Shown here: piece by piece, positions 8,410 through 29,534 of the stretch
How the letters are laid out: each line of letters begins with the position of its first letter
Position numbering within the stretch: the first letter of the stretch is position 1
From: Shigella phage Sfin-1
Sequence record: NC_047998.1
Reading direction: 5' to 3' (one strand)
DNA length: 50,403 bases
The notes under the pieces: model-generated
Database searches by the model: none
What the model saw: only the letters and a program-made list of their open reading frames with translations
Told to the model about the DNA's origin: nothing
Position numbers and translations under genes: made by a program

Positions 8410-8453
8410 ACTATATCAAATCACCCCACCGACGTTTTAGCAATTCGTGCTAT
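8410..8453 (-). promoter_or_regulatory. Early promoter cassette (TAGCACGAATTGCTAAAAC dyad, 22-bp spacer, TGnTATAGT)
   Basis: Dyad TAGCA-N5-TGCTA; 22 bp to extended -10 TATAGT; the TAG of the dyad is the stop codon of the upstream kinase gene. Confidence 0.55.
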
Positions 8454-9022
8454 TTGTTGATGAACGTAGCGGCTATGTGCTGAGCGGTAATTTCTGGATG
8501 ACCTTCGACAGAGAAGAAATCACACTCCTGATAACCATTAACCCCGATCATATCTTCCAGGTAAATATAATCACGGCTGTCGTTGTCAAAGTTGCAGCCT
8601 TTGCGGTGTATTCGACATAGCTTGACCTGGATATCACCCTCAATCATCTGCAATACCTCATCTTTGAATCCACCATCAGTAAATACTGACAGAGAATATG
8701 ACTCTTTGACCTTGCTTTCCGCTCGCATACCGAAGAATCGATTTCCGAACTGTGGCTTGATGACTTCCTCGCTAATCCAGATCATAAACTGGCGCGGGCT
8801 TTTACCGTTCAGGATTGACGCTGGCTCTTCTTTGTAACGACGGTCCTCATACAAGAACATGAAATACTCGTAGTTAGTTTCACCCAGGATTGCCCGAGCA
8901 ATCTCAAACATTGGTGCTTTAAAGCTGCGCAAAGCTACATGATCGTAAGTGTCAGCCAGGATGCATCCGATAGTGTCCTTGCCTGCTCCAGGAGCGCCGT
9001 TTAAAATGATAGCTGTTTTCAT
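8450..9022 (-). CDS. P-loop nucleotide/nucleoside-monophosphate kinase (T4 Dnk-like)
   Basis: Walker A GAPGAGKDT and an LNGKSP motif that I recall from T4 gp1 dNMP kinase; AGGGAG RBS. Confidence 0.55.
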   Translation of the reverse strand: MKTAIILNGAPGAGKDTIGCILADTYDHVALRSFKAPMFEIARAILGETNYEYFMFLYEDRRYKEEPASILNGKSPRQFMIWISEEVIKPQFGNRFFGMRAESKVKESYSLSVFTDGGFKDEVLQMIEGDIQVKLCRIHRKGCNFDNDSRDYIYLEDMIGVNGYQECDFFSVEGHPEITAQHIAATFINK

Positions 9023-9023
9023 A

Positions 9024-9134
9024 TCAGTATCTCCCTAAAAATAATTTTGCCATATCGATAATAGTGTGATTGATGATTAGCAGGATGATAACCGTCAATA
9101 CCGGATGTGCTGCAATAAATTCGTATAGGTTCAT
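9024..9134 (-). CDS. Small single-pass membrane peptide (36 aa), translationally coupled to both neighbours
   Basis: ATGA overlap with the phosphatase stop; stop 1 nt before the kinase ATG; hydrophobic core VLTVIILLII. Confidence 0.35.
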   Translation of the reverse strand: MNLYEFIAAHPVLTVIILLIINHTIIDMAKLFLGRY

Positions 9135-9607
9135 TTCTCTACCCCGTGCGATTTTAAATGATCGTGAACGTTATCGCCATAGTCAACTACAGCATATGTT
9201 GTTATTCCAAGCGACCGGAATAATGGAATAATTTGCGGTGAGTCATCCCAAGCTGCCAGGATGTTTTCAATACCGATCGCTCGCACCGCTTCTTCTTTCA
9301 TCACCGTGTCTTTCCTGTTGTCTGTGTGCGGTCGCATGACTAAGTAATCATATCTCGCACCGTGATGCTTAAGCCATAACTCAGATGCGTAACGAACCTC
9401 ATCACTTCGCCCGGTTAAAACTATTACGTGATACCCGGCAGCAAACATAGAGTTCATAACCTCAATCGTGCTCTGGATTGGGTTATCAAATATTGCCGCT
9501 CGGTTAAACTCAGACCAGCTTTCAGTTAAGTGCAAATCCTTTGTCGGCAACAGGTGAAGGCGCTTTGATCCATCACTAAGCGTTCCGTCAAAGTCAAAGA
9601 TTGCCAC
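9131..9607 (-). CDS. HAD-superfamily phosphatase (putative nucleotidase or polynucleotide 3'-phosphatase)
   Basis: N-terminal DFDGTL (HAD motif I, DxDGT); GTG start. Confidence 0.6.
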   Translation of the reverse strand: MAIFDFDGTLSDGSKRLHLLPTKDLHLTESWSEFNRAAIFDNPIQSTIEVMNSMFAAGYHVIVLTGRSDEVRYASELWLKHHGARYDYLVMRPHTDNRKDTVMKEEAVRAIGIENILAAWDDSPQIIPLFRSLGITTYAVVDYGDNVHDHLKSHGVEK

Positions 9608-9703
9608 GCGTCGCGTGCCGAGAAACAGGTTGATAGTTTGACCCCAATGGTAATTTTATCCATGATTTATTCCTATGATTGGTTGCTTAACTCAACGAAG
9701 GGC

Positions 9704-9747
9704 ATTCTATCAAATGCCCTTGAGCAAGTTTTAGCAATTAGTGCTAT
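9704..9747 (-). promoter_or_regulatory. Early promoter cassette (dyad plus 22 bp plus TAGAAT)
   Basis: TAGCACTAATTGCTAAAAC followed after 22 bp by TGaTAGAAT; a GGGCATT/AATGCCC hairpin overlaps the -10. Confidence 0.5.
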
Positions 9748-10193
9748 TACCAGCAACTGATCTCGTATTCAGCCCAGCTATCAAACTCTTCCTGACTGAA
9801 TGAGCCGCCGTAATTGTCATGAATATCATCGATCAAAAAGTAGCACGACTCACCGTTACGATAGAAGTATGAATCAGCAACGTTACGCGCCCATGTTCCG
9901 GCGTCCTTCTTGCTCATCTTCCAGTATTTAATTGCAATCTTCTTGAATGCGCGAACTACGCGCTTGCGGATCTTGATATGCTTGTACCCCGCGTTGCAGC
10001 CGTAAGCCATATACTCATTGTTCCCGAGATTCTGCATGATGTACGGATTAACTTCTTTTGAAGCAATCATTAGATCGCCATCGCCTCGATGCGCATCATA
10101 AATGCTTGCTGTCATGTAGTGGCCTTTGAACATTCCAATGCCGTGCAGGGTGTGTTCATTGTTAGGTGTATCAATGCAAATCAAATGTTTCAT
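9747..10193 (-). CDS. Hypothetical protein (148 aa)
   Basis: Start moved to the internal ATG at 10193, which has a GAGGG RBS. Confidence 0.45.
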   Translation of the reverse strand: MKHLICIDTPNNEHTLHGIGMFKGHYMTASIYDAHRGDGDLMIASKEVNPYIMQNLGNNEYMAYGCNAGYKHIKIRKRVVRAFKKIAIKYWKMSKKDAGTWARNVADSYFYRNGESCYFLIDDIHDNYGGSFSQEEFDSWAEYEISCW

Positions 10194-10223
10194 GAGTGTT
10201 CCCTCGTTCGTTGGTGTAGGGGA

Positions 10224-10267
10224 ATCATATCGCATTCCCATTGATAGGTTTTAGCAATTCGTGCTAT
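10224..10267 (-). promoter_or_regulatory. Early promoter cassette (dyad plus 22 bp plus TATGAT)
   Basis: TAGCACGAATTGCTAAAAC, 22-bp spacer, TATGAT; GGGAAT/ATTCCC hairpin. Confidence 0.5.
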
Positions 10268-10469
10268 TCGTTTTAATAGTGATGCAAAAATAATTTTTTA
10301 AGCACGTCACCACGCGCGCTGAATCTACTTGTGGAAGCCTTAAAATTTCATGGACCAGTTGCACTGCCGACACGTCAAAATTGTAGTAGTGTGCGATTCT
10401 GGAGGTATTTGGGAGCATCCCTTCCACTGCGTCACGCGCTGCATCTTCCGCTGTCATGATAGTAGCCAT
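10251..10469 (-). CDS. Hypothetical protein (72 aa)
   Basis: AAGGG RBS; stop lies within the downstream promoter dyad. Confidence 0.35.
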   Translation of the reverse strand: MATIMTAEDAARDAVEGMLPNTSRIAHYYNFDVSAVQLVHEILRLPQVDSARVVTCLKNYFCITIKTNSTNC

Positions 10470-10576
10470 AAAACACCCTTAAGAGATAGAGTCAGAAACA
10501 GGAGGCAGAATAACAACTCATGAAATGATGGAGGTTCGTTTTTCCAGTTCTTAAAGTCAGGCATAAAGCTATTCAT
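10454..10576 (-). CDS. Possible small hydrophobic peptide (40 aa)
   Basis: GAGGTG RBS and ATG just downstream of a terminator-like hairpin; overlaps the next gene start out of frame. Confidence 0.2.
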   Translation of the reverse strand: MNSFMPDFKNWKNEPPSFHELLFCLLFLTLSLKGVLWLLS

Positions 10577-10584
10577 ATTCACCT

Positions 10585-10618
10585 CATAAAAATAGGGAAC
10601 CGCTCAGGAACGATTCCC
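10585..10618 (-). terminator. Putative terminator hairpin after the membrane-anchored tandem-domain gene
   Basis: GGGAA...TTCCC stem followed by a U-rich tract on the minus strand. Confidence 0.3.
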
Positions 10619-10626
10619 ACTTTAAG

Positions 10627-11283
10627 TTAAACTACGAAAAACAGCACGATAAGAGAAATAAGAAGCACGGTAGCCATAGCCAGGTTCGCCAGATTATCAA
10701 TGTCCTTGTTGGTCAGCTTAGGCTTGACTTTACCATCAACTTCGATTGGCTTAACGCTGTGAATCTTACCCTGTTCGATGCGGAAACCGCCCTTGATTCG
10801 ACTGGTATTAAATTTCTGCTTCTTCTTGCCGAACGTTGCAAACTTAGTGCCGCCACTATTCCAGCGAAGACCTTCGCCATTATGCGTTACGGTAGCAATG
10901 CGGTGACGGCCCGTGTCGTCAGTAAGCGCTACAGTGTGCTTTGCGTGCTCAGTAGGAACGTCGTAGATTTTGCCAACAGTAAATTTCTTGGTGTTATCAC
11001 TGATACATTCGAATTTCATAAATTTTACCTCTTTATTATGCAGTTGGTTGATTGCTTCGATTACGTCGTTAAATTTAACACCATCCACGATTCGATGGAA
11101 GATATATTTTGAACTACCGCCATACGGCAGGAAAATTTCTTGGTATTCGTGACGACGGATGATGTTCACATTGCTACCGTGCTCATCCACGACAACGAAG
11201 CTGTCGTTATTGACGCGAGCGCCTTCGTAGATTTTTCCCCACTTAAATCCCGTTCCGTCACTTGATACGCATTCAAATTTCAT
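10627..11283 (-). CDS. Membrane-anchored protein with two tandem copies of a small conserved domain and a C-terminal transmembrane helix
   Basis: Internal repeat MKFECVSSDGTGFKWGKIYEG / MKFECISDNTKKFTVGKIYDV; C-terminal hydrophobic tail LANLAMATVLLISLIVLFFVV. Confidence 0.55.
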   Translation of the reverse strand: MKFECVSSDGTGFKWGKIYEGARVNNDSFVVVDEHGSNVNIIRRHEYQEIFLPYGGSSKYIFHRIVDGVKFNDVIEAINQLHNKEVKFMKFECISDNTKKFTVGKIYDVPTEHAKHTVALTDDTGRHRIATVTHNGEGLRWNSGGTKFATFGKKKQKFNTSRIKGGFRIEQGKIHSVKPIEVDGKVKPKLTNKDIDNLANLAMATVLLISLIVLFFVV

Positions 11284-11567
11284 GGTCTAACCTTCCTGTA
11301 AGGTTTGATTGATAACATCACGTATTGCGTGAAGTCGCATTCCTGATCGTCATACCCGCGATTGATGTATGGCGTCACGTCTGTAACATCGGACACCCTG
11401 GCGTGAACTTCCCACCCGGTAAACTCGTCACGATCGAACTCGCATAGCTCCAGGATATCGCCAGGCTGGAAGTTGCGGTCATTGATGCGGAACTCTGCCG
11501 TTTTTGTTCCGTTCATTACTCCAATGAAATGTACCGGGGCGATTTTTAATTTATGAGTTTTGCTCAT
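11280..11567 (-). CDS. ASCH/PUA-like (DUF3850-type) small protein
   Basis: The ~95-aa sequence KLKIAPVHF...G.KTAEFRINDRNFQPGDILEL fits my recollection of the DUF3850/ASCH fold signature. Confidence 0.4.
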   Translation of the reverse strand: MSKTHKLKIAPVHFIGVMNGTKTAEFRINDRNFQPGDILELCEFDRDEFTGWEVHARVSDVTDVTPYINRGYDDQECDFTQYVMLSIKPYRKVRP

Positions 11568-11757
11568 CTTCCTTTACCTCGAATGTTACGTTCCAAAATT
11601 TATTGCCGCAAGAATGATAGGTTACGTCATGCGGCGTTAGTTCGTGCAATGCATGACCGATGATTTCCATGCGATCGTTCGGTGTCAGACCTCGAAGTGA
11701 TTCACGAAGGCGTGAAGCCTTGTCGTAAATCTGCCACTGCGTGAGTCGTGTAGCCAT
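11551..11757 (-). CDS. Hypothetical protein (68 aa)
   Basis: Start moved to the internal ATG at 11757, which has an AAGGA RBS. Confidence 0.35.
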   Translation of the reverse strand: MATRLTQWQIYDKASRLRESLRGLTPNDRMEIIGHALHELTPHDVTYHSCGNKFWNVTFEVKEDEQNS

Positions 11758-11885
11758 AGCTGATTCCTTATTTGCAAAACGGGCAGGTTGATTTATTTCC
11801 GCTGCCACCATGATTAGGGCAGCACACTTTCTCAATTGGTGTCATAGCTGATTCCTCTGATTGGTTGCCGTGCTTCAATAAGGCC

Positions 11886-11929
11886 ACTATATCAAATGGC
11901 CTTGCGGAAGGTTTAGCAATTCGTGCTAT
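11886..11929 (-). promoter_or_regulatory. Early promoter cassette (dyad plus 22 bp plus TGaTATAGT)
   Basis: TAGCACGAATTGCTAAACC, 22-bp spacer, extended -10; GGCCA/TGGCC hairpin. Confidence 0.55.
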
Positions 11930-12075
11930 CGTTTAACACACATTGTTTTTACTTCGTATCCGAACGGCTTGTTTTCTGCAATTACTTCCCGAGCCTTGTT
12001 ACATGCTTGCTGACTTTCCATGTATACGTGATCCGGCCCGGTACTCATCAAGATAATCAAGACCCATGCAGCCAT
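11926..12075 (-). CDS. Small membrane peptide (49 aa), below the ORF-track cutoff
   Basis: TAATG overlap with the upstream stop; GAGGTG RBS; hydrophobic N-terminus; its stop is the TAG of the promoter dyad. Confidence 0.3.
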   Translation of the reverse strand: MAAWVLIILMSTGPDHVYMESQQACNKAREVIAENKPFGYEVKTMCVKR

Positions 12076-12566: not shown

Positions 12567-12590
12567 TTCCTCTTGGTGGTCGATGTGGGG

Positions 12591-12634
12591 ATTGTACCAG
12601 TCAGGACGAATCCCCTTTTAACAATTCGTGCTTA
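12591..12634 (-). promoter_or_regulatory. Early promoter cassette (variant dyad TAAGCACGAATTGTTAAAAG plus 22 bp plus TACAAT)
   Basis: Same architecture; GGGGATT/AATCCCC hairpin; dyad contains the TAA stop of the upstream gene. Confidence 0.5.
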
Positions 12635-13338: not shown

Positions 13339-13368
13339 GATAAATCCTCGTTCGTTATCGATGGGGTT

Positions 13369-13412
13369 ACTATATCGCAACCCCGGAATTGAGTTTTAAC
13401 AAAAAGTGCTAT
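13369..13412 (-). promoter_or_regulatory. Early promoter cassette (dyad variant TAGCACTTTTTGTTAAAAC plus 22 bp plus cgaTATAGT)
   Basis: Same spacing; GGGGTT/AACCCC hairpin. Confidence 0.5.
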
Positions 13413-14114: not shown

Positions 14115-14120
14115 AATTAT

Positions 14121-14351: not shown

Positions 14352-14389
14352 GGCGAATCCTCTGATTGGTATCTCGTTTTGATGGGGTA

Positions 14390-14433
14390 ACTATAGCAAG
14401 ATACCCCGATCCGGTTTTAACAATTCGTGCTAT
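14390..14433 (-). promoter_or_regulatory. Early promoter cassette (TAGCACGAATTGTTAAAAC plus 22 bp plus TGcTATAGT)
   Basis: Same architecture; GGGGTA/TACCCC hairpin. Confidence 0.55.
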
Positions 14434-15097: not shown

Positions 15098-15129
15098 CTT
15101 CGTTTCCTCTGTATCGTGTCGATGAAAAG

Positions 15130-15173
15130 ATAATACCCGATCCGCTCGACCGGGCTTTAACAAAAAGTGCTAT
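15130..15173 (-). promoter_or_regulatory. Early promoter cassette (TAGCACTTTTTGTTAAAGC plus 22 bp plus TATTAT)
   Basis: Same architecture; CCCGGTCGAGCGGATCGGG hairpin. Confidence 0.5.
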
Positions 15174-15703: not shown

Positions 15704-16145
15704 AATCCATCCTCATTTGTCTATTGATGTGTAAATGGTGTCATAACATGTCAACAATTGCCATTGTGACAGCGCAATGCAGGGCTGTCAATGCCTGCGA
15801 GCCAATTTTAAGCTGTGTAACATTTGTCTAGCTGTCTAGAGTCCCCATAGAAATATATGACTCTCAAAAAAGTACTGTATATATAAACATGCAGATAGAA
15901 ATATGCCAACAGTACGCTAGACAATGTAAGACGGCTATACACAACTATTACAATATAATTATCTATATATATAAATATAAAAAAAACACTATATATATTA
16001 TATATATACATATATCCATATGTCTATTGTGGGGCGTCACAGTGCGTAATTTTGTCACAAGTGCGATTCTAGACAAATATTACAGTCGTGACAAGTTAAG
16101 GTGTAATCGATAGCACGTTTTGCTAAAAATGGAGATGACCACCAG
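15704..16145. promoter_or_regulatory. Divergent early control region A: TA-rich tract and six TGTCTA half-sites (four direct, two inverted)
   Basis: Non-coding strand-switch region; TGTCTA at 15719, 15825, 15834, 16021 and TAGACA at 15918, 16067; about 60-bp (TA)n-like tract at 15955..16015; degenerate promoter dyad at 16111..16128. Confidence 0.55.
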
Positions 16146-16603: not shown

Positions 16604-17304
16604 AATTAATCTGGTCGCTATTTGACGGTTCCGGTCTTGCTGGTCATGAACTGGCTAAGCAAGGTCACAAGGTGATGTGCTTCAACTTTGACGGAGCAGA
16701 TCACGGAGATTACGAAAAGTATAACGCCAGGGTTGAGCATCCGAACATTGAGTATGTGAACGTCTTTATTGATGAGAAGTTCGAACGTGACGCGATCTCG
16801 GGAGTGTATGGCAAGCCGGATTTTATTATGGCCTTCCCTCCTTGCACTGACCTGGCTGTTAGTGGCGCTAGTCACTTTGCAAGAAAGCGTGAGCGTGATC
16901 CGTTATTCCAGGAGAAGGCTGTCGCCACCGCCCGGATTGCCGCGAACATTGGAGATAGCCTTGGCGTGACTTACATCATTGAGAATCCGGTGAGCGTCCT
17001 GTCGTCTGCGTGGAGAAAACCAAATCACTCCTTCAATCCCTGGGAGTATGGCGGCTATCTTCCTGAGAATGACTCACACCCCTGGTTCCCGATGTATATT
17101 GCGCCGCGCGATGCTTACCCGAAGAAAACTTGTCTTTGGACCTCTGACGATTTTGTCATGCCCGAGAGAAAACCTGTAAGCCTACCTGACGGGTACTCTG
17201 CACAGCACAGTAAGCTAGGCGGCAAGTCCGCAAAGACTAAGCTGATACGCTCCCTGTCGCCCAGGGGATTTTTTAAAGCGATCGCGGATAGCACTTTTTG
17301 TTAA
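16600..17304 (+). CDS. Putative DNA (cytosine-5) methyltransferase
   Basis: Motif I-like LFDGSG, PC dipeptide (PPCTD) as candidate catalytic Cys, ENV-like IIENP; short for the family. Confidence 0.45.
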   Translation: MKLIWSLFDGSGLAGHELAKQGHKVMCFNFDGADHGDYEKYNARVEHPNIEYVNVFIDEKFERDAISGVYGKPDFIMAFPPCTDLAVSGASHFARKRERDPLFQEKAVATARIAANIGDSLGVTYIIENPVSVLSSAWRKPNHSFNPWEYGGYLPENDSHPWFPMYIAPRDAYPKKTCLWTSDDFVMPERKPVSLPDGYSAQHSKLGGKSAKTKLIRSLSPRGFFKAIADSTFC

Positions 17305-17331
17305 AACTCGATCGGTGTGATTTGGCATAAT
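17289..17331 (+). promoter_or_regulatory. Early promoter cassette (TAGCACTTTTTGTTAAAAC plus 22 bp plus CATAAT)
   Basis: Dyad overlaps the stop of the methyltransferase gene. Confidence 0.45.
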
Positions 17332-17369
17332 TACCTCATCGAAACGAGATACACATCAGGAGCAAGAAA

Positions 17370-17705
17370 ATGAAATACGAAAATCGCGGTAACGAAATCA
17401 TCAAAATCGAAAACGGCGTTGAGTACATCATGGTTGCTTGCAAGGTTAACGGAATGGACTCCTTCGTTTGGGAAGAAATCAAAACTGAAGACAAGGCAGT
17501 TAAATTCCTGACCTGTGTTAACCAGCCCGACATGGATCGCGACACATTCACTCGTTACGGTAAATATGAAATCGTTCGCGAGACTGCTTGCTTCTGGTGG
17601 GTGATGCCTAACAGCCAGTACAAATTCCCGCGCAAAATCAGTAAGCGCACCATGCGTGAAGCTGGCATCAAAGAAGCATACGCCGCTGAGTTCGATATTG
17701 CTTAA
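17370..17705 (+). CDS. Hypothetical protein (111 aa)
   Basis: AGGAG RBS. Confidence 0.45.
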   Translation: MKYENRGNEIIKIENGVEYIMVACKVNGMDSFVWEEIKTEDKAVKFLTCVNQPDMDRDTFTRYGKYEIVRETACFWWVMPNSQYKFPRKISKRTMREAGIKEAYAAEFDIA

Positions 17706-17748
17706 TAGCACGAATTGCTAAACGCCCAGAGCGAGATCGGGGTGTAGT
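17705..17748 (+). promoter_or_regulatory. Early promoter cassette (TAGCACGAATTGCTAAACG, weaker -10 TGTAGT)
   Basis: Starts directly after the TAA stop; 22-bp spacer. Confidence 0.4.
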
Positions 17749-17778
17749 GAATAAATCAACAAATCAGAGGATTAAATT

Positions 17779-17940
17779 ATGATCGTATATTGCGTAGTGG
17801 GAACTATCTACTATGAAGGTGATGAACTGATCGAGATATGCTCAACTGAAAGAAAGGCTAACGAGATCAAGAATCTTACTGAGAATGACAGAACCAACTT
17901 CTTTGATGAGATCAAGATTGTTCAAAAAGAGGTTATCTAA
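17779..17940 (+). CDS. Hypothetical small protein (53 aa), below the ORF-track cutoff
   Basis: AGAGGA RBS; exactly fills the gap between two promoter cassettes. Confidence 0.4.
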   Translation: MIVYCVVGTIYYEGDELIEICSTERKANEIKNLTENDRTNFFDEIKIVQKEVI

Positions 17941-17983
17941 TAGCACTTTTTGTTAAACGCGCATCAGGGATGGCTGGTATAGT
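17941..17983 (+). promoter_or_regulatory. Early promoter cassette (TAGCACTTTTTGTTAAACG plus 22 bp plus TATAGT)
   Basis: Spacing verified; GGATGGCT...TCATCC hairpin. Confidence 0.55.
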
Positions 17984-18014
17984 CATCCCATCAACAGCAA
18001 ATGAGGAAAGAATC

Positions 18015-18949: not shown

Positions 18950-19055
18950 CAGCGTAAAAAATGTTCGCGTTTACGATAGCCATCAAAAAGCAATGATGCA
19001 GAAAGTAGTTCTAGGTGGCACAATCAAAGAGTGCAAAGTAATTTCTGAGTACTGA
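18912..19055 (+). CDS. Possible small protein (47 aa)
   Basis: ORF ends 1 nt before the next promoter dyad; weak RBS; overlaps the upstream gene 3' end. Confidence 0.25.
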   Translation: MIYIHTFYTGKFNSVKNVRVYDSHQKAMMQKVVLGGTIKECKVISEY

Positions 19056-19099
19056 TAGCACGAATAGCTAAAGACGACAAACCGGGAGTAAGGTATATT
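19056..19099 (+). promoter_or_regulatory. Early promoter cassette (TAGCACGAATAGCTAAAGA, about 23 bp, TATATT)
   Basis: GGGAGTAA/TTACTCCC hairpin around the -10. Confidence 0.45.
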
Positions 19100-19132
19100 A
19101 CTCCCACACCAAACGAAACGAAGGAATTAAAA

Positions 19133-19570: not shown

Positions 19571-19572
19571 AT

Positions 19573-19624
19573 AGCACGATTTGTTAATATTGCCGTAAGG
19601 TCATTTGATAAAGTGACCTTATTC
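19573..19624 (+). promoter_or_regulatory. Early promoter cassette (TAGCACGATTTGTTAATAT plus TGaTAAAGT)
   Basis: GGTCA...TGACC hairpin. Confidence 0.45.
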
Positions 19625-20067: not shown

Positions 20068-20072
20068 CCAAT

Positions 20073-20113
20073 AGCACTTTTTGCAAAACGCGTGTACCAT
20101 TGGCGGTGTATCA
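20073..20113 (+). promoter_or_regulatory. Early promoter cassette (TAGCACTTTTTGCAAAACG plus 22 bp plus TATCAT)
   Basis: GGTGTA...TACACC hairpin. Confidence 0.5.
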
Positions 20114-20143
20114 TTTACACCGTCAACTAAGGAGTTTATTGTG

Positions 20144-22124: not shown

Positions 22125-22236
22125 GCAAGGGTTGTTGAGTCTGTTACTCACTTCAATGAGGGCCAGTAACGAAAGCGAGCATAATCTTTGCGATAAGGAG
22201 GGGGAGTTACTCCTTCACGTAAAAAGGTACAAATAG
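22036..22236 (+). CDS. Possible hypothetical protein (66 aa) overlapping the 3' end of the previous gene
   Basis: GGAGAG RBS; stop adjoins the next promoter dyad; the overlap makes one of the two calls uncertain. Confidence 0.25.
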   Translation: MKICLANVETLIDRNVELCARLQLTKEEFEQGLLSLLLTSMRASNESEHNLCDKEGELLLHVKRYK

Positions 22237-22277
22237 CACTTTTTGTTAAAACACCCGATCTCGTATCGGGTATATTT
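22235..22277 (+). promoter_or_regulatory. Early promoter cassette (TAGCACTTTTTGTTAAAAC plus 22 bp plus TATATT)
   Basis: CCCGATCTCGTATCGGG hairpin. Confidence 0.5.
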
Positions 22278-22313
22278 GTTTCATCGAAATGAAACGACCT
22301 GAAGGAAAACATC

Positions 22314-23941: not shown

Positions 23942-24004
23942 GAAATACCCTCTTTGTTTTATATGTGGTCAATATACCCGAATCCCTTCGGGAGTTTTTG
24001 GCGA

Positions 24005-25156
24005 TTAGTGCGATCCTGTCATTTCTGGACGATAGATGAATCGCCCGATTTCACCAAACTGTTTATCGTAAACGATTACCGCCGCCTGGCGATATGAGCG
24101 CCACCCTCCTCGCGCTGCGTATGCATCTTTCGCGCCTAACTGCCCGTGAACCTCATCAATACCTAACGAGTGTTCAGTAATTGTCTGATGATGCCAGTGT
24201 CCGCTATGCGTGTACACGTATTTGCTTTCACCAAAATCTGCGCGGAAATCTGCTGCCATCGCTGCAAGTCGCGTGTCTGCCTTTTTCATCGTGTGACCGT
24301 GAGTGTATCCCAACAAGGTATTTCCCCAGCGGGTCTTATGCAGAATCATAGGACTAACGTCAACGAATACTCGCGGCTCGTCCTCATAGTATGCAGCCAT
24401 TGCAGCGCGTAGCCAAATCATTCCGGCCTGGTCGTGGTTCCCTTCGATAACCTGAACTTCGACCTCTTTGTGTTTAGTCAGCATTTTGTCGATAGCTCGT
24501 CGCACCGATCGAATAGCCACATGCACCAATTTCGCATATCGTGAATCCTGATCCAGAACGTGACCACTTGCCGGGGTAACAGCATCAAGACCGTCTGAGT
24601 GAAGGAAGTCGCCGCCGATTAACAGAACAGCCTTCTCTGCGTTCGGGGCAATATCGATCGCGTAGTTAAAGAAGTCATTCAGCACTTTTTCCGCTACGTC
24701 TGTAGAGTAGTTCTCTCCGCATTCATGCTTGTGAGCAAGTGCGCCAATGTGAAGATCGAACACCGGGTAGAGTGCCAGCTTGCCAATAGCGGTTGTAAGC
24801 CCTTGCGAGGTGAGTAGCTCAGTTGGTTTTGCTCGCGGCAAGTCTTCACAGAATGCAATACGCGCAGCTTCCATCATTGCCGCAATCTTCTCACGGTCCT
24901 GATCGGTCTTAACCCATCGCACTACCTCGGTCCCATCGCCGCGAATCATAGTTGATGTGCCTTTTACCATGAATCCTTCCGGTACGTTCTTAGCAACATG
25001 CTCGTTACCGTGGAAGTGACCTTCTTTTGCAAGTTTGGCGTGACGCGCTTCAACTGTGCGGATGTGCATACCGTACTTTTCAGCGATCTCGCGAAGTGTA
25101 AGTCCGCTCATGCGCTCTTCGATAAGTTGCTCGGTAGTGATTTTAGCTTGTGACAT
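24005..25156 (-). CDS. Calcineurin-like metallophosphoesterase with N-terminal helix-turn-helix domain
   Basis: Phosphoesterase motifs D-x-H (FDLHIG), GDxxD (GGDFLHSDG), GNHD, GHTH, GHWH; N-terminal LTLREIAEKYGMHIRTVE resembles an HTH. Confidence 0.6.
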   Translation of the reverse strand: MSQAKITTEQLIEERMSGLTLREIAEKYGMHIRTVEARHAKLAKEGHFHGNEHVAKNVPEGFMVKGTSTMIRGDGTEVVRWVKTDQDREKIAAMMEAARIAFCEDLPRAKPTELLTSQGLTTAIGKLALYPVFDLHIGALAHKHECGENYSTDVAEKVLNDFFNYAIDIAPNAEKAVLLIGGDFLHSDGLDAVTPASGHVLDQDSRYAKLVHVAIRSVRRAIDKMLTKHKEVEVQVIEGNHDQAGMIWLRAAMAAYYEDEPRVFVDVSPMILHKTRWGNTLLGYTHGHTMKKADTRLAAMAADFRADFGESKYVYTHSGHWHHQTITEHSLGIDEVHGQLGAKDAYAARGGWRSYRQAAVIVYDKQFGEIGRFIYRPEMTGSH

Positions 25157-25234
25157 ATTTTAATCCTTACATGATAATGAAATACATTACTGAAAATGAA
25201 ATTAGCGGTGTTAATACTACAGCAAAATAAAGAT

Positions 25235-25636
25235 TCATGCCACAGCCTTTAACCAGAATCCTAGATCTGACGATTTAAACTCAACCAGCTTTCCGTCAAC
25301 CTCAAGCATCATACTGTTTCTGCCAGGTGAGTAGTAACCTATATGCAACTCATGCTCCATACCGATAGTGCAAAGCACATTAACGAAGTCAGGAGGCAAC
25401 CAATCAGAGAAAGGGATTTTCTTAACCTGCTTTTTTCCGATCCAGATAGTATGATAATCTTCTGCGTTAATATTTAAGCCTGGAAGGCTTGTTGTTTTTT
25501 GCTGCTTTTCGTTCTCGCTCAATTCTCTTTCCTTCTTCACGATAAAACTCAAGTGACGGAGTTGCTGGCACTCTATGCATTTTTCTCGGCATATCTTCCA
25601 TAAATGAAATCTTGCCATTTGATATAATGCTAACAT
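25235..25636 (-). CDS. Hypothetical protein (overlaps 25467..25739 in another frame)
   Basis: 133-aa ORF; weak RBS; C-terminal 80 aa look protein-like. Confidence 0.3.
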   Translation of the reverse strand: MLALYQMARFHLWKICREKCIECQQLRHLSFIVKKERELSENEKQQKTTSLPGLNINAEDYHTIWIGKKQVKKIPFSDWLPPDFVNVLCTIGMEHELHIGYYSPGRNSMMLEVDGKLVEFKSSDLGFWLKAVA

Positions 25637-25739
25637 CCTTTATATCGAAATATTTCGCTATTAGTGCTATATCGTCTGAGATTCCGCATTCCTTCGCGTG
25701 CTCCCAAACCTCGCGTTTACCTTGTTTTTTTATCAACAT
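25467..25739 (-). CDS. Hypothetical protein (overlaps 25235..25636 in another frame)
   Basis: GGAG RBS; N-terminal 55 aa look protein-like, C-terminal part is low-complexity basic. Confidence 0.3.
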   Translation of the reverse strand: MLIKKQGKREVWEHAKECGISDDIALIAKYFDIKDVSIISNGKISFMEDMPRKMHRVPATPSLEFYREEGKRIERERKAAKNNKPSRLKY

Positions 25740-25926: not shown

Positions 25927-25958
25927 CTTATTATTCCTCATTTCGTTTTGATGAAATA

Positions 25959-26002
25959 ACTATACCCGACTTTCGCCGGGTAGTTTTAGCAATTAGTGCT
26001 GT
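25959..26002 (-). promoter_or_regulatory. Promoter cassette (TAGCACTAATTGCTAAAAC plus 22 bp plus TATAGT)
   Basis: Same architecture as the early cassettes; CCCGGCGAAAGTCGGG hairpin. Confidence 0.5.
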
Positions 26003-26244
26003 AAGATCGTGTCGGATTTAAGTTCTTCTACGTCTTTCTGAATGATTGAAGGCCAATGCTCTATGTGTTTATTCTTTATCTCATCGAACGACATATCAAG
26101 AGAACTTGTAAACTCCCATAAATCGCAACCAATAACATCTTGAGTTAATCCGTTTCTCTCCATAATTTCGCAGCACGTAGCGCGATAAAGAAGCCATAAC
26201 CCTTGATCGGTTAATTTAACAGGAACCATTTTTTCGCTCATCAT
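25993..26244 (-). CDS. Hypothetical protein (83 aa), translationally coupled to the Dam gene
   Basis: ATGA overlap with the Dam stop. Confidence 0.45.
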   Translation of the reverse strand: MMSEKMVPVKLTDQGLWLLYRATCCEIMERNGLTQDVIGCDLWEFTSSLDMSFDEIKNKHIEHWPSIIQKDVEELKSDTILQH

Positions 26245-26954
26245 ACTTTTCTCACCTTTGCTCGTTTGTTTTTAACGGAAGGACAAATGCTTGTGATTGG
26301 GATGTAGTGAGTCTGTTGCGTCTCACCTTCTTTAAGTTCGCGCATAATAAAAATAACCGAACCTTTGTTGTTGCCGTCTACGGCTTTTCCAGTTTCACCT
26401 GATATGAAAGCCAGACGACCGGATCGTGCGTATTCATTGCCGTCAATATCCTCAGTCAAATCAGCTTCAATCCAGATGATTTCAGCCGCGTGCTGTCGAG
26501 CCTCAGTAAACCACGCCGTCGAGTTATCGGCAGGTAAAAGAATATCGATCTGGTTGTTGTGCTCCATTTGCTCAATCGCTTTCTTGACGAATATATCAGG
26601 TCGACTGTAAGGAGGATTTAACCATACGTGCTTATTTTTACCCCACCAACGTTTTAAGCAGTTTGTTTCCTGGGAATAAAACTTCTCGCAAACTTTATTT
26701 TCTTCGCTTGCCGCAGCGTCTAGATCATATTTTCCGTAGCGCCCCTCAAGATATGCGATAACCTCTCGTGGAGTTGACCATAAATCACGAACAGCATCCG
26801 GCGTATTGGTCCCCTTGTATCGACGTCCTGAAATCTCTTTGCAGGTTGGGGTTTTCAATGCCTGATAATAACCGCCTGATGCTATTGCTTCGCGAGTAAA
26901 TGAGCAACCAGTTTCAGCAAAATCAATGGTTTCGATATCATTAAAGTCTTTCAT
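26241..26954 (-). CDS. dam: DNA N6-adenine methyltransferase (phage Dam type)
   Basis: NPPY catalytic motif (WLNPPYSRPD); GAGAGGA RBS. Confidence 0.75.
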   Translation of the reverse strand: MKDFNDIETIDFAETGCSFTREAIASGGYYQALKTPTCKEISGRRYKGTNTPDAVRDLWSTPREVIAYLEGRYGKYDLDAAASEENKVCEKFYSQETNCLKRWWGKNKHVWLNPPYSRPDIFVKKAIEQMEHNNQIDILLPADNSTAWFTEARQHAAEIIWIEADLTEDIDGNEYARSGRLAFISGETGKAVDGNNKGSVIFIMRELKEGETQQTHYIPITSICPSVKNKRAKVRKV

Positions 26955-26980
26955 TTTTAATCCTCTCGTTTCGGTGAGAT

Positions 26981-27025
26981 AATAATGCCAGAATCCATTC
27001 CGGCATGTTTAGCAAAAAGTGCTAT
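26981..27025 (-). promoter_or_regulatory. Promoter cassette upstream of the Dam gene (TAGCACTTTTTGCTAAACA plus AT-rich -10)
   Basis: Dyad in minus orientation; -10-like ATTATT at about 22-23 bp. Confidence 0.4.
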
Positions 27026-27438
27026 TTCGTTAAATCGTATATTGCCAGCTTGAATTGCTCAAATCCGTATGCAACGGCAGAGAATCCACCGCGATCCCGA
27101 ACCTTTTTGAGAAACTCCCTTTGCTTATCGCTGACTGGTGATGCCTTTCCTTTGCCGGACTTATTAACCCGCTTGAGTTCGATAGCTGCGAACGGGTAAC
27201 GTGAGTTTATACCAATCAGAATAACAAAGTCTGATACGCCTTTAAGTAATCCAGCCTGCTCATCCCTAAGTGCCGAAGTGATTGTTTTTTCACCTTCGTT
27301 AACTGTGTGCCAAAATAGAAGCTGAGGAAAATTGTATTTCAACCAGGACACGCAGTCTACTTGATGAGCGTCCTCCTTTCGCGTGTCGCTAGGATCTCGC
27401 TCGTAAAACTCTAAGTAATCGCCTTTATCTGTAATCAT
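27022..27438 (-). CDS. VRR-NUC domain nuclease (PD-(D/E)xK fold)
   Basis: D...ELK core (DFVILIG...AIELKR); ATGA-coupled to the helicase. Confidence 0.55.
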   Translation of the reverse strand: MITDKGDYLEFYERDPSDTRKEDAHQVDCVSWLKYNFPQLLFWHTVNEGEKTITSALRDEQAGLLKGVSDFVILIGINSRYPFAAIELKRVNKSGKGKASPVSDKQREFLKKVRDRGGFSAVAYGFEQFKLAIYDLTK

Positions 27439-29453
27439 TCCGGGATATCCTCCATACCGAAATCTTTGCGTGAAATAATATCTTCTTTCTTCTGGTTGCG
27501 TCTATGAGTAACGCGTACCGGATGCGCTATATGATGAGCGTATTGCACGATCTTGATAGCGTTCTTCATTCCGATAAAGTAGCGACGCATTTTAGGATCT
27601 GATACGTGAGGTAATACTCCTTTCGTTTTCCATAGCGTACCGCAAATCTTAGAGTCTGACTCAGGGAAGAATTTTTCATACGCCTTGAACTCATCACCAT
27701 CGTCGTTAATAAGTGTGTATTTGTATATCACACCCTTTTGGTTTTTGGTTAACGTAACTTCAAAATTCTTGACCTCGTACCAGTCATTCTTAGTGTACGC
27801 CTTACCGGATAACTTAAGGTTAGGATCAACAAGAGAAACATCGCAACAGCGACATACTCGGGCAACAACGTCATTCTCGGCACCGCACCCTTTAACAAGA
27901 ATTTTCCCGGTACGTTCATCAACCTGGTCCTCGCAAATCTGAGAAGTCCAGAAATGATCGCAGCGTTCACCGTCGATAACGTTAACGCATCGGCGAGCGT
28001 AGAAGCTATTTACGCAACCACATTTCGGACACTTTTTCGGGTCTTTTCCGTTCTCAAATCGCTTCTGGAACTGAGCCTGCTCAAGTATAGGATCGAAATA
28101 AAGCTGCCCCAACTCATCCATCGTGCCTGCGAAATCCCATACAAGATGGTCTTGCTTAACCATCCCTTCAGCAACCTGCCATGATTTAAGAAGTCGCATA
28201 CCCCTACCCAAAAGCTGAATCAGCAAGGTGAGAGATCCTATCTTGCGAAGTATTACACTGAAATCCCAGTTTGGAACGTTAACGCCAGTAGTTAGCGCCA
28301 TGACCTGAAAGGTGTATTTAATTTTCCCTGCCCTCACATCATCAAGAATCTTCTTGCGCGTTTTAGTGTCTGTGTCGCCAGTAATAATTGCATATGTGCT
28401 TCCAGGCGGTAGTGCCGCTGCCGCCTCTTTGCAGTGACGCACCCCAGCGCATGTAATCAGGACTGCGTTACGCTCTTCAGCCTTTTTAGCAACCATTTGC
28501 ATGATTCGCTGAGTAAGAGATTTATCATGAAGGATCTCATCTTCCATTGCCTTCATATCTTTCTCTGTAAAGTCCTGTACCCCATCCTCGCTTGATGCCT
28601 TAAATTTATCAAGATCGTAGTGAACTCCGTCCGTCGAGCCGAATATAGTAGGAACAACTGAGCCAAACTCAATAAGGTAGTTGGTGTCTATATCAGTAAC
28701 GCGCTCACGCCAGAAGCCTAACGCCTTTGGATTCTCAACAAGAATAGGAACTACGCCACGAAATTCAGATCCAGTCATACCAAATATTCTGAGGTCGTGA
28801 CCGTGAGTTTCTTTGCAGCGGCGCATCATTTCCATGATTACGATCGTGTATTGGCTTCGCTTAGTTCCAAGTAGAGGCTTCCCATCATTACCAATCAGAG
28901 GAACCTCCCCATTCATAATGATTTTTCCCTTCTCTTCCCGCATCTGTTCCATCGTTTCCTTGCCATCTATGGCTTGTGCAAGGTCTTCCCAATCCACCTG
29001 GTGACATTCATCTATCCCGATTACGTGAGGGACAAAATCAGCTAGCTCATTATTTAAACCATTTGCAACAGTACCCTCAGAGCCTACCACGATCGGGAAG
29101 TAGCAAGACTTGATTCCAAGTGACGCTGAGAATATAGAGTTAGTCACCCCGAAATTGTCGATCTCTTCACTATCCTGATCGACAATCTCACCCTGGCGTG
29201 CCAGCACAAGCATTTTCAAGCCCATTTTTTGACACTGCTTTGCAACCATAGCAAAAATGATGGTCTTACCCGCCGATACTGACGCTTTAACAAAGAATGG
29301 GTGCTCATAATTTGATAGGCGTTTTGCGATCTCAGCATAAGCAACAACCTGGTACGGATACGGAACGACCTCACCAACAGTGAATCGTTCTTGAGTGCGT
29401 TTTATATAGTCCTCGCCAAGTAATGCGATTTGCTTTTTGATGTTAATTGTCAC
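27435..29453 (-). CDS. Superfamily-2 DNA helicase with C-terminal zinc-ribbon
   Basis: Walker A SAGKT, motif II DECH, C-terminal CPKCGC...C..C cluster; GTG start with AAAGGA RBS. Confidence 0.8.
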   Translation of the reverse strand: MTINIKKQIALLGEDYIKRTQERFTVGEVVPYPYQVVAYAEIAKRLSNYEHPFFVKASVSAGKTIIFAMVAKQCQKMGLKMLVLARQGEIVDQDSEEIDNFGVTNSIFSASLGIKSCYFPIVVGSEGTVANGLNNELADFVPHVIGIDECHQVDWEDLAQAIDGKETMEQMREEKGKIIMNGEVPLIGNDGKPLLGTKRSQYTIVIMEMMRRCKETHGHDLRIFGMTGSEFRGVVPILVENPKALGFWRERVTDIDTNYLIEFGSVVPTIFGSTDGVHYDLDKFKASSEDGVQDFTEKDMKAMEDEILHDKSLTQRIMQMVAKKAEERNAVLITCAGVRHCKEAAAALPPGSTYAIITGDTDTKTRKKILDDVRAGKIKYTFQVMALTTGVNVPNWDFSVILRKIGSLTLLIQLLGRGMRLLKSWQVAEGMVKQDHLVWDFAGTMDELGQLYFDPILEQAQFQKRFENGKDPKKCPKCGCVNSFYARRCVNVIDGERCDHFWTSQICEDQVDERTGKILVKGCGAENDVVARVCRCCDVSLVDPNLKLSGKAYTKNDWYEVKNFEVTLTKNQKGVIYKYTLINDDGDEFKAYEKFFPESDSKICGTLWKTKGVLPHVSDPKMRRYFIGMKNAIKIVQYAHHIAHPVRVTHRRNQKKEDIISRKDFGMEDIPE

Positions 29454-29467
29454 GGCTATTTAATCCT

Positions 29468-29496
29468 TTGAATCGTTGTATCGTTTACGATATAAT
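29468..29496 (+). promoter_or_regulatory. Sigma70-like promoter (TTGAAT, 17 bp, TATAAT) for the rightward HTH/primase genes
   Basis: Canonical hexamers and spacing directly upstream of the 29548 gene. Confidence 0.5.
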
Positions 29497-29534
29497 ACAC
29501 GGCATACAGTAAACGTTTTTAGCAAAAAGTGCTA
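29491..29534 (-). promoter_or_regulatory. Promoter cassette for the helicase operon (TAGCACTTTTTGCTAAAAA plus 22 bp plus TATTAT), divergent from the plus-strand promoter
   Basis: Dyad in minus orientation; its -10 overlaps the TATAAT of the plus-strand promoter. Confidence 0.45.

Follow-up and report, generated by a model that had tools for sequence, protein, structure and literature searches.

Predicted promoter cassettes with a marbox-like box in the early gene arrays of Shigella phage Sfin-1

Cassettes across the Sfin-1 genome

The window analyzed here (50,403 nucleotides) is the complete genome of the T1-like Shigella phage Sfin-1 (NC_047998.1), a member of the Drexlerviridae with a 99.9% match to Sfin-6. 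It contains about 25 copies of the box ATAGCAC-N3-TTG-Y-TAAAAC, about 20 of which have a −10 hexamer at a fixed spacing; read along transcription, the order is box, spacer, −10. An earlier note on this DNA had described an array of promoter-like cassettes, and the dyad counts, far above expectation, show that the array is real: TAGCA-N5-TGCTA occurs 9 times exactly (0.04 expected) and 23 times at one mismatch (1.5 expected). The minus-strand starts given in that note (8410, 9704 and onward to 25959, about 26982 and about 29492) mark the low-coordinate side of each −10 hexamer. Further copies lie beyond its range, at 6604, 31057, 34072, 46539 and 50302, with a degenerate one at 29984, and the copy at 23995 lies within the range but had been missed. 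In 17 of 20 copies, the upstream ORF terminates between box positions −5 and +15, and in 6 of the 20 its stop codon is the TAG within ATAGCAC itself, which supports the view of the small genes as self-contained cassettes. In our best reading, these elements are predicted promoters with a hairpin that drive the early genes of a T1-like phage.

The minus-strand cassettes of the left array all have an 18-bp spacer and, except for the last, a type A hairpin, whose stem ends at the predicted −1. In the cassette at 8404..8453, the box (8434–8453, ATAGCACGAATTGCTAAAAC) is followed by the −10 TATAGT at 8410–8415 and a discriminator, and the hairpin has 15 bp and −22.6 kcal/mol. The cassettes at 9698..9747 (box 9728–9747) and 10218..10267 (box 10248–10267) carry TAGAAT with the arms AAGGGCAT/ATGCCCTT and TATGAT with GGGAAT/ATTCCC, respectively. 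At 11880..11929, the box (11910–11929) equals the marbox consensus and precedes TATAGT, with the arms AAGGCCA/TGGCCTT. The copy at 12585..12634 has the box TAAGCACGAATTGTTAAAAG (12615–12634), TACAAT with TG, and GGGGATT/AATCCCC; that at 13363..13412 (box 13393–13412) has TATAGT and GGGGTT/AACCCC; and that at 14384..14433 (box 14414–14433) has TGC-TATAGT and GGGGTA/TACCCC. The ORF downstream of the latter (14121–14351) has a homolog in the Slopekvirus phage phiEap-3. At 15124..15173 (box 15154–15173, −10 TATTAT), the hairpin is of type B, lying within the spacer and followed by a terminator-like T-rich tail.

At the edge of the control region 15704–16145 lies a plus-strand box (16110..16129, ATAGCACGTTTTGCTAAAAA) that has no −10 at 18 bp and is identical to the E. 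coli mar marbox at 16 of 20 positions. The plus-strand cassettes have 18-bp spacers, apart from 19055..19105 with 19 bp, TATATT and the type A hairpin GGGAGTAA/TTACTCCC. The cassette at 17288..17337 (CATAAT with TG, type A) stands immediately downstream of a separate intrinsic terminator (17251–17267). Exact consensus boxes occur at 17705..17754, with the weak −10 TGTAGT, and at 17940..17989, with TGG-TATAGT and the type A hairpin GGGATG/CATCCC. The copy at 19571..19620 has two box mismatches, TGA-TAAAGT and the type A hairpin AAGGTCA/TGACCTT. Upstream of a gene for a 543-aa helicase, the cassette at 20071..20120 carries TATCAT and a type A hairpin, and its differences from the T1 ortholog preserve pairing via G:U. 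The last of this series, 22233..22282 (TATATT), combines a terminator-like type B spacer hairpin (CCCGAT/ATCGGG) with a 5′ UTR hairpin.

The right-hand minus-strand copies also have 18-bp spacers unless stated. The previously missed cassette at 23965..24014 (box ATCGCACTAATCGCCAAAAA, TATATT, type B) lies upstream of a DUF7244 gene, and a probable one at 25621..25670 (box ATAGCACTAATAGCGAAATA, TAGCAT) is conserved in T1 (40308). The cassette at 25953..26002 (box ACAGCAC..., TATAGT) has a type B hairpin with a GAAA loop, and its T1 ortholog is annotated as a rho-independent terminator in the T1 record; the type B hairpin of the copy upstream of the Dam operon (26976..27025, exact consensus box, CATTAT) is likewise a terminator in the T1 annotation. 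The helicase operon has a cassette at 29486..29535 (box 29516–29535, TATTAT at 29492–29497), and the Erf-like gene one at 34043..34091, in which the exact consensus box ACGGCACAAATAGCTAAACA is separated by 17 bp from TATAAT and the type A hairpin is GAGGTG/CACCTC. Two further minus-strand boxes are exact consensus matches: 6604..6623 abuts the ribosome binding site of the small terminase gene on its 5′ side, has no −10 downstream and is conserved in T1, and 31057..31076 is antisense to the start of the tail-fibre gene, has a weak −10 and points into a terminator. On the plus strand, the box at 46539..46588 is followed after 18 bp by TGA-TACGAT, lies antisense to late genes, runs into the late-gene terminator and is conserved in T1; that at 50302..50321 (weak −10) lies upstream of the major capsid gene and points against the late operon.

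Box asymmetry, spacing and hairpins

The box spans 20 bp and matches the published marbox/soxbox consensus AYNGCACNNWNNRYYAAAYN with at most one mismatch 23 times, compared to 1.1 expected (maximum 4 in 100 shuffles); 7 matches in the phage genome are exact. Variation among the phage boxes (8–10, always A/T at 10; C/T at 14) falls where the consensus has N, W and Y, and RE1 (CACG or CACT), a 7-bp gap and AAA match what helices 3 and 6 of MarA and RamA read. The suggestion that one dimeric protein binds the dyad is not supported by this marbox-like pattern. The left half is TAGCA throughout, the right half can be TGCTA or TGTTA, and the invariant AAA(A)C tail is found on one side only. Within the dyad, C at position 6 stands opposite T, not G, at position 10, and in the flanks the A before is opposite an A, not a T, after. 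The marbox, to which a monomer with two helix-turn-helix motifs binds, shows the same asymmetry, variable positions included. Information content is highest at G4, C5, C7 and G13 (2.0–2.3 bits). The phage boxes are far more uniform than E. coli marboxes, with A3, T11 and T12 near invariant where the consensus has N; possible reasons are a different protein, selection for very high affinity, or boxes made alike by recombination.

In every cassette of the earlier note, the −10 starts 18 bp after the box and thus 22 bp after the 15-bp dyad, confirming the spacing reported there, including the one longer at the dyad at 19056. Of 344 unique boxes collected from related phage DNA (about 1 Mb), 57% have TANNNT at offset 18, no other offset exceeds 7%, and 71% have G at −14 (extended −10). 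If transcription starts 7 nt after the −10, the box would occupy −50 to −31, with its centre at about −40.5, which agrees with the class II activator position proposed earlier. The proposed lack of a −35 was also borne out: a canonical sigma-70 scan of 8000–27999 gave 41 sites compared to 36.9 expected, none of them at cassettes. Reading the E. coli promoters directly, we found that micF (ACAGCACTGAATGTCAAAAC, 18 bp, TAGAAT) has the layout of the phage cassettes, and that zwf (forward box, 30 bp, TACAGT) is mirrored by a 29-bp cassette variant in T4-like phages.

A GC-rich hairpin that shows covariation surrounds or immediately precedes the −10, so the hairpin described earlier is a genuine feature. 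Its mean MFE is −10.1 kcal/mol compared to −4.6 kcal/mol for shuffles, and native cassettes fold at −9.9 compared to −6.0 for chimeras joining left and right halves of different cassettes (p=1.5e-20). Pairing of 5 or more Watson-Crick bp was found for 27% of own arms but only 3% of arms from different cassettes, and there are 19 distinct arm pairs. The T-tract is confined to type B hairpins, which are annotated terminators in the T1 record and were flagged terminator-like here.

Candidate proteins at the box

We favor, with about even confidence, the reading that these are PeSL-type cassettes in which a class II marbox replaces the −35 and is probably read by the host stress regulators Rob, MarA or SoxS. 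Each copy would combine a terminator or attenuator with a promoter, insulating and driving one small early or middle gene. The asymmetric box, placed forward and ending 18 bp before the −10 in the class II geometry of micF, would substitute for the −35. We infer that its binder is a monomeric activator with two helix-turn-helix motifs, the likeliest being Rob, MarA or SoxS (RamA in Klebsiella), which from −50 to −31 would contact sigma-70 region 4 and the alpha C-terminal domain and thereby recruit host RNA polymerase. The TATAGT-like −10, often extended (TGn), may confer some basal activity without activator, and the predicted start is the A in the conserved CATCGA(A)ACGA leader, which continues into the Shine-Dalgarno sequence. 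In read-through RNA from the upstream gene, the stem-loop between box and start site would form; type B stems, followed by the T-rich −10 and discriminator, may act as intrinsic terminators or attenuators, and type A stems as attenuators or protectors of the upstream transcript's 3′ end.

We found no AraC, MarA, SoxS or Rob homolog encoded by the phage. Against the host reading, MarA and SoxS are scarce and most Rob is sequestered when cells are not stressed, yet T1 grows rapidly in ordinary media. Classical T1-resistant mutants are not known to map outside tonA and tonB, so none of Rob, MarA and SoxS can be essential by itself. Redundancy among the three, or the extended −10, would have to explain this pattern.

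A phage protein switching the early regulon on or off from the box, either the Cro/YdaS-like regulator (29548..30000, plus strand; T1 ST23 family) that the earlier note had named or another small early protein, is a fairly unlikely alternative. An immediate-early activator of many promoters is a classical phage strategy, and the half-sites of TAGCA-N5-TGCTA lie 10 bp apart, as for a dimer. The regulator is conserved in all Drexlerviridae examined. Its gene and the primase have a strong, near-consensus sigma-70 promoter, read directly (TTGAAT-17-TATAAT, 29468..29496, plus strand), whose −10 is overlapped by the opposite-strand −10 of the helicase operon cassette (29492–29497); the box of this cassette falls at about +14 to +33 of the regulator transcript. 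Boxes occur at the 5′ end of this gene in T1, TLS and Sfin-1, which looks like autoregulation. However, box conservation is asymmetric, and the box stays the same although genera differ in the recognition helix (NQTVQGW, LKTVWGW, PQAVEEW). Among 56 early ORFs, no helix-turn-helix protein other than this regulator was found. A profile search of the whole phiEap-3 genome, which has the cassette, revealed no homolog of the T1 regulator (best E 0.16, control 4.5e-79), and among the tblastn matches listed all were 44–53 kb genomes. The marbox match would then be a coincidence.

It is unlikely that the box is a UP-element-like site for the RNA polymerase alpha C-terminal domain, with the extended −10 supplying the rest and no dedicated activator. 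TTTTT-GTT-AAAA fits the UP-element core consensus, TWTTTTNNNAAA, and the A/T tract lies near −41 in 18-bp and near −52 in 29-bp cassettes, the two preferred alpha-CTD positions. The frequent G at −14 fits as well, a box-like string occupies the UP position of a Vibrio phage nt-1 promoter, and the TLS authors raised the idea (PMC11447400). Yet the most informative positions, G4, C5, C7 and G13, are dispensable for a UP element, the T-tract is broken in the GAATT and TAATT variants, and most boxes lie over the −35 position, not at −59 to −38. It is very unlikely that the box serves as a repressor or stoperator-like site, or chiefly as a linker for recombination kept uniform through gene exchange. 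Like mycobacteriophage L5 stoperators, the boxes are asymmetric and follow the direction of transcription, usable −10 elements are absent at 6604, 16110 and 31057, PeSLs mediate recombination, and cassettes with flanking small ORFs have moved between Drexlerviridae and Straboviridae. Against this, the fixed 18 bp to the −10 in about 57% of the 344 boxes would be unexpected, and spacer and hairpin vary freely between copies while the box stays constant, so selection acts on the box itself.

Relation to known systems

Comparison with related phages, as proposed earlier, recovered the box: T1 has 21 consensus hits, and hits come almost entirely from Enterobacteriaceae phages. The box is the same element as the 21-nt intergenic direct repeat of the TLS reannotation (consensus aaATAGCACnnnTTGnTAAAA, 18 intergenic copies), which follows the direction of transcription, lies about 76 nt upstream of start codons and was also noted in T1, Rtp and Rogue1 (PMC11447400). 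That paper leaves the function of the repeat open, naming a stoperator, an enhancer and a UP element as possibilities, and does not tie the repeat to a fixed-spacing −10 or a marbox (PMC11447400); both links are made here. Thus, the repeat itself was already published, and what is new is the marbox match, the micF/zwf geometry, the occurrence in T4-like phages and the PeSL architecture.

Class II MarA/SoxS/Rob/RamA promoters such as micF resemble the phage cassettes in consensus, forward box, 18-bp distance and canonical −10 without a −35, in line with the literature on class II sites (forward, centre near −41, no −35 match, canonical −10). The 29-bp variant resembles the forward zwf arrangement with about 30 bp. 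The phage boxes differ from chromosomal marboxes in being much more uniform, with about 25 in 50 kb, and host binding to them is putative. A phage regulon of the class II marbox kind was not found in the searchable literature.

The analogy to T4 PeSLs drawn in the earlier note holds and can be extended, since the same cassette is present in T4-like phages: Slopekvirus and Pseudotevenvirus share its leader sequence and even carry complete cassettes, and the leader half with a canonical −35 also occurs in Vibrio and Pectobacterium phages. Published PeSLs and PmSLs (Arbiol 2010; Comeau 2014) share the upstream ORF stop at the 5′ end, the promoter, the arrays of small ORFs, the G-run/C-run stem-loop with G-T pairs, which either sits between −35 and −10 or covers the −10, and a 3′ end with the Shine-Dalgarno sequence and start codon. 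For PeSL stem-loops, termination of transcription has been shown in vivo. These elements belong to T4-like phages, whereas Sfin-1 is a siphovirus (Drexlerviridae), and PeSLs have a sigma-70 −35 (TTGACA, TTTACW or TTGYVH) and PmSLs a MotA box where Sfin-1 has a marbox-type site. The PmSL, as the MotA-box variant, is a precedent for an activator box replacing the −35.

Inventory and layout of the early-gene cassette

The window comprises an essentially complete genome of the Drexlerviridae (Tunavirus, T1-like), to which the Shigella phages Sfin-6, Sfin-2, and Sfin-5 are 99.9–100% identical over 8–30 kb. Its two early gene arrays run divergently from a 440-bp non-coding control region (15704–16145). 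The dyad TAGCA-N5-TGCTA occurs nine times in exact form (0.04 expected) and 23 times when one mismatch is allowed (1.5 expected). Read along the direction of transcription, the copies take the form ATAGCAC-NNN-TTG-(C/T)-TAAAAC, a 20-bp box that contains the 15-bp dyad. An earlier note, made from the sequence alone, had counted about 20 copies of a promoter-like cassette between 8410 and 29534. Our recount gave the same number (n = 20), taking in a missed copy at 23995, a probable copy (25651), and a box that lacks a -10 (16110). Outside this range lie six more boxes (6604, 29984, 31057, 34072, 46539, and 50302).

The spacing held up as well: a TATAGT-like hexamer lies 22 bp past the dyad as the note had stated, i.e., 18 bp past the box. 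In a sample of 344 unique boxes out of ~1 Mb of related phage DNA, TANNNT stands at offset 18 in 57% and at every other offset in at most 7%, and 71% of the boxes have a G at -14. Downstream of the -10 follow a C-rich discriminator, a conserved CATCGA(A)ACGA leader, and a Shine-Dalgarno sequence. A scan for canonical -35/-10 pairs found sites at about chance frequency (41 versus 36.9 expected) and none at a cassette, where the -35 position reads AAAACN; this agrees with the reported lack of a canonical -35. The stop codon of the upstream ORF, which the note had often seen inside the dyad, falls within or beside the box in 17 of the 20 copies and is the TAG of ATAGCAC in six of them.

Several boxes depart from this layout. 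Between the regulator and primase genes (29984–30060, +), a strong terminator (-17 kcal/mol, T-run) comes after a degenerate box, ATAGCATTTTTAGTTAAAAC, and T1 is annotated with a terminator at the matching place; the element looks like a decayed or terminator-only cassette. An exact-consensus box at 6604–6623 (-) sits directly 5' of the ribosome-binding site of the small terminase gene with no -10 downstream, and is kept in T1 (8362), where it comes after an annotated terminator. Three boxes, likewise kept in T1, run antisense to genes of the late or tail-fibre set (46539–46588, +; 50302–50321, +; 31057–31076, -). Of these, the box at 46539 is followed by a good TGn -10 and points at the major tail gene's terminator. 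Early in infection, such boxes may give rise to antisense or interference transcription.

The few strong canonical promoters revealed by the scan are grouped at 15.76–16.10 kb. The control region has an AT-rich (TATATA)n core. No strong canonical sigma-70 promoter lies elsewhere in the early region, and those found here, each on the minus strand, are TAGACA-18-TATAAT (16026–15997), TTGTCA-17-TAGAAT (16094–16066), and TTGACA-17-CACAAT (15791–15763). Recurring TGTCTAG/CTAGACA and TGTCAC/GTGACA motifs in it are possible operators of the phage's Cro-like protein, and the T1 record begins in the homologous region. Divergent promoters overlap at 29454–29547. Here TTGAAT-17-TATAAT (29468–29496, +) drives the Cro-like gene and the primase gene, its -10 base pairs are common to the minus-strand TATTAT of the box-dependent helicase promoter, and the box of the latter falls at about +14 to +33 of the regulator transcript. 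Competition between the two promoters is expected and could act as a switch.

The box compared with host marboxes

The box corresponds to the "21 nt direct repeat" aaATAGCACnnnTTGnTAAAA of phage TLS, described in 18 intergenic copies ~76 nt before start codons and also in T1, Rtp, and Rogue1 (PMC11447400). The TLS authors proposed stoperators, enhancer sites, or UP elements, and in 2024 listed the function of the repeat among four open questions on T1-like phages (PMC11447400). Only three sigma-70-like promoters were found in TLS (PMC11447400), and T1-like phages appear almost without recognisable ones. Reading the box as a marbox, the binding site of the host regulators MarA, SoxS, and Rob (RamA in Klebsiella), makes its function directly testable. 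Our literature searches, which reached few subscription journals, found no paper linking marboxes to phage repeats, and they found no transcriptomics of Drexlerviridae.

The soxbox/marbox consensus AYNGCACNNWNNRYYAAAYN, derived from E. coli genes, has 23 matches in the window at no more than one mismatch (1.1 expected, maximum of 4 in shuffles), seven of them exact. The recurrent single mismatch is an A at position 19, which E. coli micF has too. Positions that vary among the phage copies are the degenerate ones of the consensus: 8–10 vary, with A or T always at 10 (W), and 14 is C or T (Y). Like a marbox, the box is a 20-bp asymmetric site with GCAC (RE1) and YAAA (RE2) 7 bp apart; CACG/CACT-7 bp-AAA is the pattern recognised by MarA and RamA through helices 3 and 6.

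To compare the geometry, we went straight to the E. coli micF, mar, and zwf sequences. In MG1655, micF consists of ACAGCACTGAATGTCAAAAC, 18 bp, and TAGAAT, and the phage cassettes share this layout to the base pair. The mar marbox ATGCCACGTTTTGCTAAATC lies in reverse orientation and is identical at 16 of 20 positions to the window copy at 16110, and zwf has ATCGCACGGGTGGATAAGCG in forward orientation followed by 30 bp and TACAGT. In published descriptions, class II sites have a forward orientation, a centre near -41, and a canonical -10 with no -35 match. The class II activator geometry suspected earlier is borne out, as every promoter-linked copy points forward and leaves 18 bp to the -10, which places the box at -50 to -31 with its centre at -40.5, assuming a start 7 nt past the -10. 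The cassettes likewise combine a poor -35 with a canonical sigma-70 -10. Judged by sequence and layout, the box matches a marbox of the class II type, though more uniform than chromosomal marboxes, and its binding by host proteins is predicted.

The note had proposed a dimeric regulator bound to the dyad, a reading that is not supported, as conservation lacks two-fold symmetry. C6 stands opposite T10, an A precedes and an A follows the dyad, the left half is invariant and the right half varies (C/T), and the AAAAC tail is present on one side only. MarA-type activators bind as monomers, which would account for this conserved asymmetry, whereas a dimer does not explain it. In the phage itself, tblastn and hmmsearch found no MarA/SoxS/Rob homolog and Pfam detected no AraC-type domain among 56 early-region ORFs, so a phage-encoded AraC-type activator was rejected. 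The whole genome of Slopekvirus phiEap-3 likewise yielded no MarA-like protein. The sole HTH protein found among the 56 ORFs is the Cro/YdaS-like regulator (29548–30000, +), kept in Drexlerviridae with 52–58% identity between genera. As reader of the box, this T1-specific regulator fits less well than a host factor or no dedicated factor, since its predicted recognition helix varies (NQTVQGW, LKTVWGW, PQAVEEW) against a constant box, since phiEap-3 carries box cassettes but, over its whole genome, no homolog of the regulator (best E 0.16 versus 4.5e-79 for the control), and since the host range of the box-bearing phages points the same way. By tblastn the regulator occurs in 823 records, and the matches listed are all genomes of 44–53 kb.

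With no dedicated factor, the box might instead be an UP element, to which it bears a partial resemblance. Boxes of the TTTTT type do look like an UP core, a likeness confined to these variants and to the 29-bp context found in phiEap-3. However, UP elements are A/T-rich, span -59 to -38, and have no conserved G or C, whereas the box lies at -50 to -31 and has its highest information at G4, C5, C7, and G13.

Other promoter classes were rejected by spacing and invariant bases, namely sigma-54, sigma-32, CRP/FNR-type, and MotA-box readings. A T4 middle promoter has its MotA box, TGCTTtA, centred at -30 and 11–13 bp from the -10; the TGCTA of our box ends 22 bp from the -10, and Pfam found no MotA-like family in the 56 ORFs. 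The sigma-54 consensus is TGGCAC-N5-TTGC with GG and GC 10 bp apart, but the box has AG for GG and its TTGC is 2 bp too close. TTGCTA or TTGTTA as a -35 was rejected because the 22-bp spacer is too long. The small ORF at 14124–14351, which phiEap-3 shares, was also rejected as a box-binding factor because it occurs in far fewer records than the box (70 versus >1000). The 'Promoter' features of the vB_EcoS_Chapo record are not located at cassettes.

The stem-loop downstream of the box

The hairpin that the note had drawn over the spacer and -10 is well supported by folding. Across 196 cassettes, the 38 nt 3' of the box fold with a mean of -10.1 kcal/mol versus -4.6 in shuffles (mean z -2.7), and swapping right halves between cassettes weakens the mean from -9.9 to -6.0 (p = 1.5e-20). 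At least five contiguous Watson-Crick pairs form between a cassette's own left and right arms in 27% of cases versus 3% for arms of different cassettes. As there are also 19 distinct arm pairs (e.g., GGGGTT/AACCCC, AAGGCCA/TGGCCTT, GGGATG/CATCCC), it is pairing rather than sequence that is conserved. RNAalifold gave no consensus structure for 15 type A cassettes because their stems are in registers offset by 1–2 nt; own-versus-cross arm pairing and chimera folding were used in its place. No Rfam family and no tRNA matched.

Two layouts can be told apart in the window. In type A (14 copies), one arm lies on either side of the -10, with the 3' arm reaching to -1. In type B (five copies), the hairpin lies within the spacer and is followed by a T-rich -10 and discriminator. 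Type B hairpins are exactly those marked as rho-independent terminators in the T1 GenBank record; a simple scan also calls them terminator-like, and only they have a T-tract. In 75% of cassettes folding is stronger for the sense than for the antisense strand (Wilcoxon p = 1e-16), and differences between the window and T1 orthologs retain pairing via G:U, both of which favour an RNA produced by upstream read-through.

In our model, a monomeric activator at -50 to -31 would recruit host RNA polymerase with sigma-70 to each cassette, the extended -10 providing basal activity. The most likely activator would be Rob, whose presence is constitutive, or else MarA or SoxS in stressed cells. Upstream read-through RNA would fold into the stem-loop and be terminated or attenuated (type B) or capped at its end (type A), which would insulate each small gene. 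Unstressed cells contain little MarA or SoxS, and most of their Rob is sequestered. The known classical T1-resistant mutants map only to tonA and tonB, so no single one of the three appears to be essential.

Spread of the cassette and kinship with PeSL elements

The complete cassette also occurs in T4-like Straboviridae, with box, 18 bp, TGn-TATAGT, discriminator, CATCGAAACGAAAC leader, and Shine-Dalgarno sequence. Carriers are phiEap-3, the Pseudotevenvirus Cronobacter phage leE (2503 and 2951), and IMG/VR contigs of 176–178 kb. The whole phiEap-3 genome holds six box cassettes (9177, 9532, 55311, 55943, 56890, and 92351), four with the 18-bp layout and two with 29 bp. In the latter, an intrinsic terminator hairpin bearing a canonical TTGCAA -35 sits between box and -10, an arrangement of the zwf type. 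The same T4-like genome has further cassettes with an identical leader and no box.

The leader half is found with a canonical -35 and no consensus box in Vibrio phage nt-1 and a Pectobacterium phage. In nt-1 (199193–199519), a canonical TTGCAA-17-TAATAT promoter that shares the GTGTTCATCGAAACGAAA leader is preceded by ATACCACTTTTTGTTTAAAAAGTG. This string is box-like, stands at the UP-element position, and forms a perfect inverted repeat (CACTTTTT/AAAAAGTG); as one example, it may be a clue to how the box arose.

Nearly all box matches belong to phages of Escherichia, Shigella, Klebsiella, Salmonella, Enterobacter, Citrobacter, and Cronobacter, the host clade that has MarA/SoxS/Rob/RamA. About 12–21 GenBank records named 'Campylobacter phage' (e.g., MG065643, MG065675; ~50 kb) are T1-like and carry cassettes and regulator; these are probably mislabelled hosts or coliphage contaminants.

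We consider it possible, though somewhat short of probable, that most early genes of T1-family siphoviruses, and of some T4-like myoviruses of Enterobacteriaceae, have come under the control of Mar/Sox/Rob, the activators of the host's antibiotic and stress response, through consensus-grade class II marboxes. If so, phage early expression would be tuned by the stress state of the host (bile salts, salicylate, oxidants, antibiotics), and ~25 high-affinity sites per genome copy could titrate the regulators off host defence genes. The clinically important Mar/Sox/Rob/RamA multidrug-resistance regulon would then be tied to early expression in phages of E. coli, Shigella, and Klebsiella in wide therapeutic use, and exposure to antibiotics or bile could alter their performance. 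The cassette itself would be a mobile, host-clade-specific promoter module traded between unrelated phage families. Drexlerviridae and Straboviridae have in common the cassettes and one flanking small ORF (14121–14351 in the window), which has a 50%-identical homolog in phiEap-3; its sporadic occurrence (70 records) is consistent with cassette-mediated gene exchange.

In T4-like phages, PeSL elements consist of an upstream stop codon, an AT-rich region, a sigma-70 promoter, a stem-loop, a Shine-Dalgarno sequence, and a start codon (Arbiol 2010; Comeau 2014). Their stem-loop pairs a G-run with a C-run, including G-T pairs, most often between -35 and -10 or over the -10, and terminates transcription in vivo. 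The promoter hexamers vary by phage group, and the PmSL variant has a MotA box in place of the -35. The likeness to PeSL proposed in the note stands: the cassette is an intergenic unit of stop codon, promoter, stem-loop, Shine-Dalgarno sequence, and start codon among small ORFs. Its stem-loop is supported by folding and favours sense-strand G:U pairs, and a terminator or attenuator role is predicted. Whereas PeSL elements have a recognisable sigma-70 -35 and -10, the T1-type 18-bp cassettes have the -10 only. If the marbox reading is right, the PeSL concept would reach beyond T4-like phages and promoter cassettes would be seen to move between phage families. Combining PeSL architecture with sequence common to cassettes in T4-like genomes, the T1-type cassette is best filed as a PeSL variant with a marbox in place of the -35.
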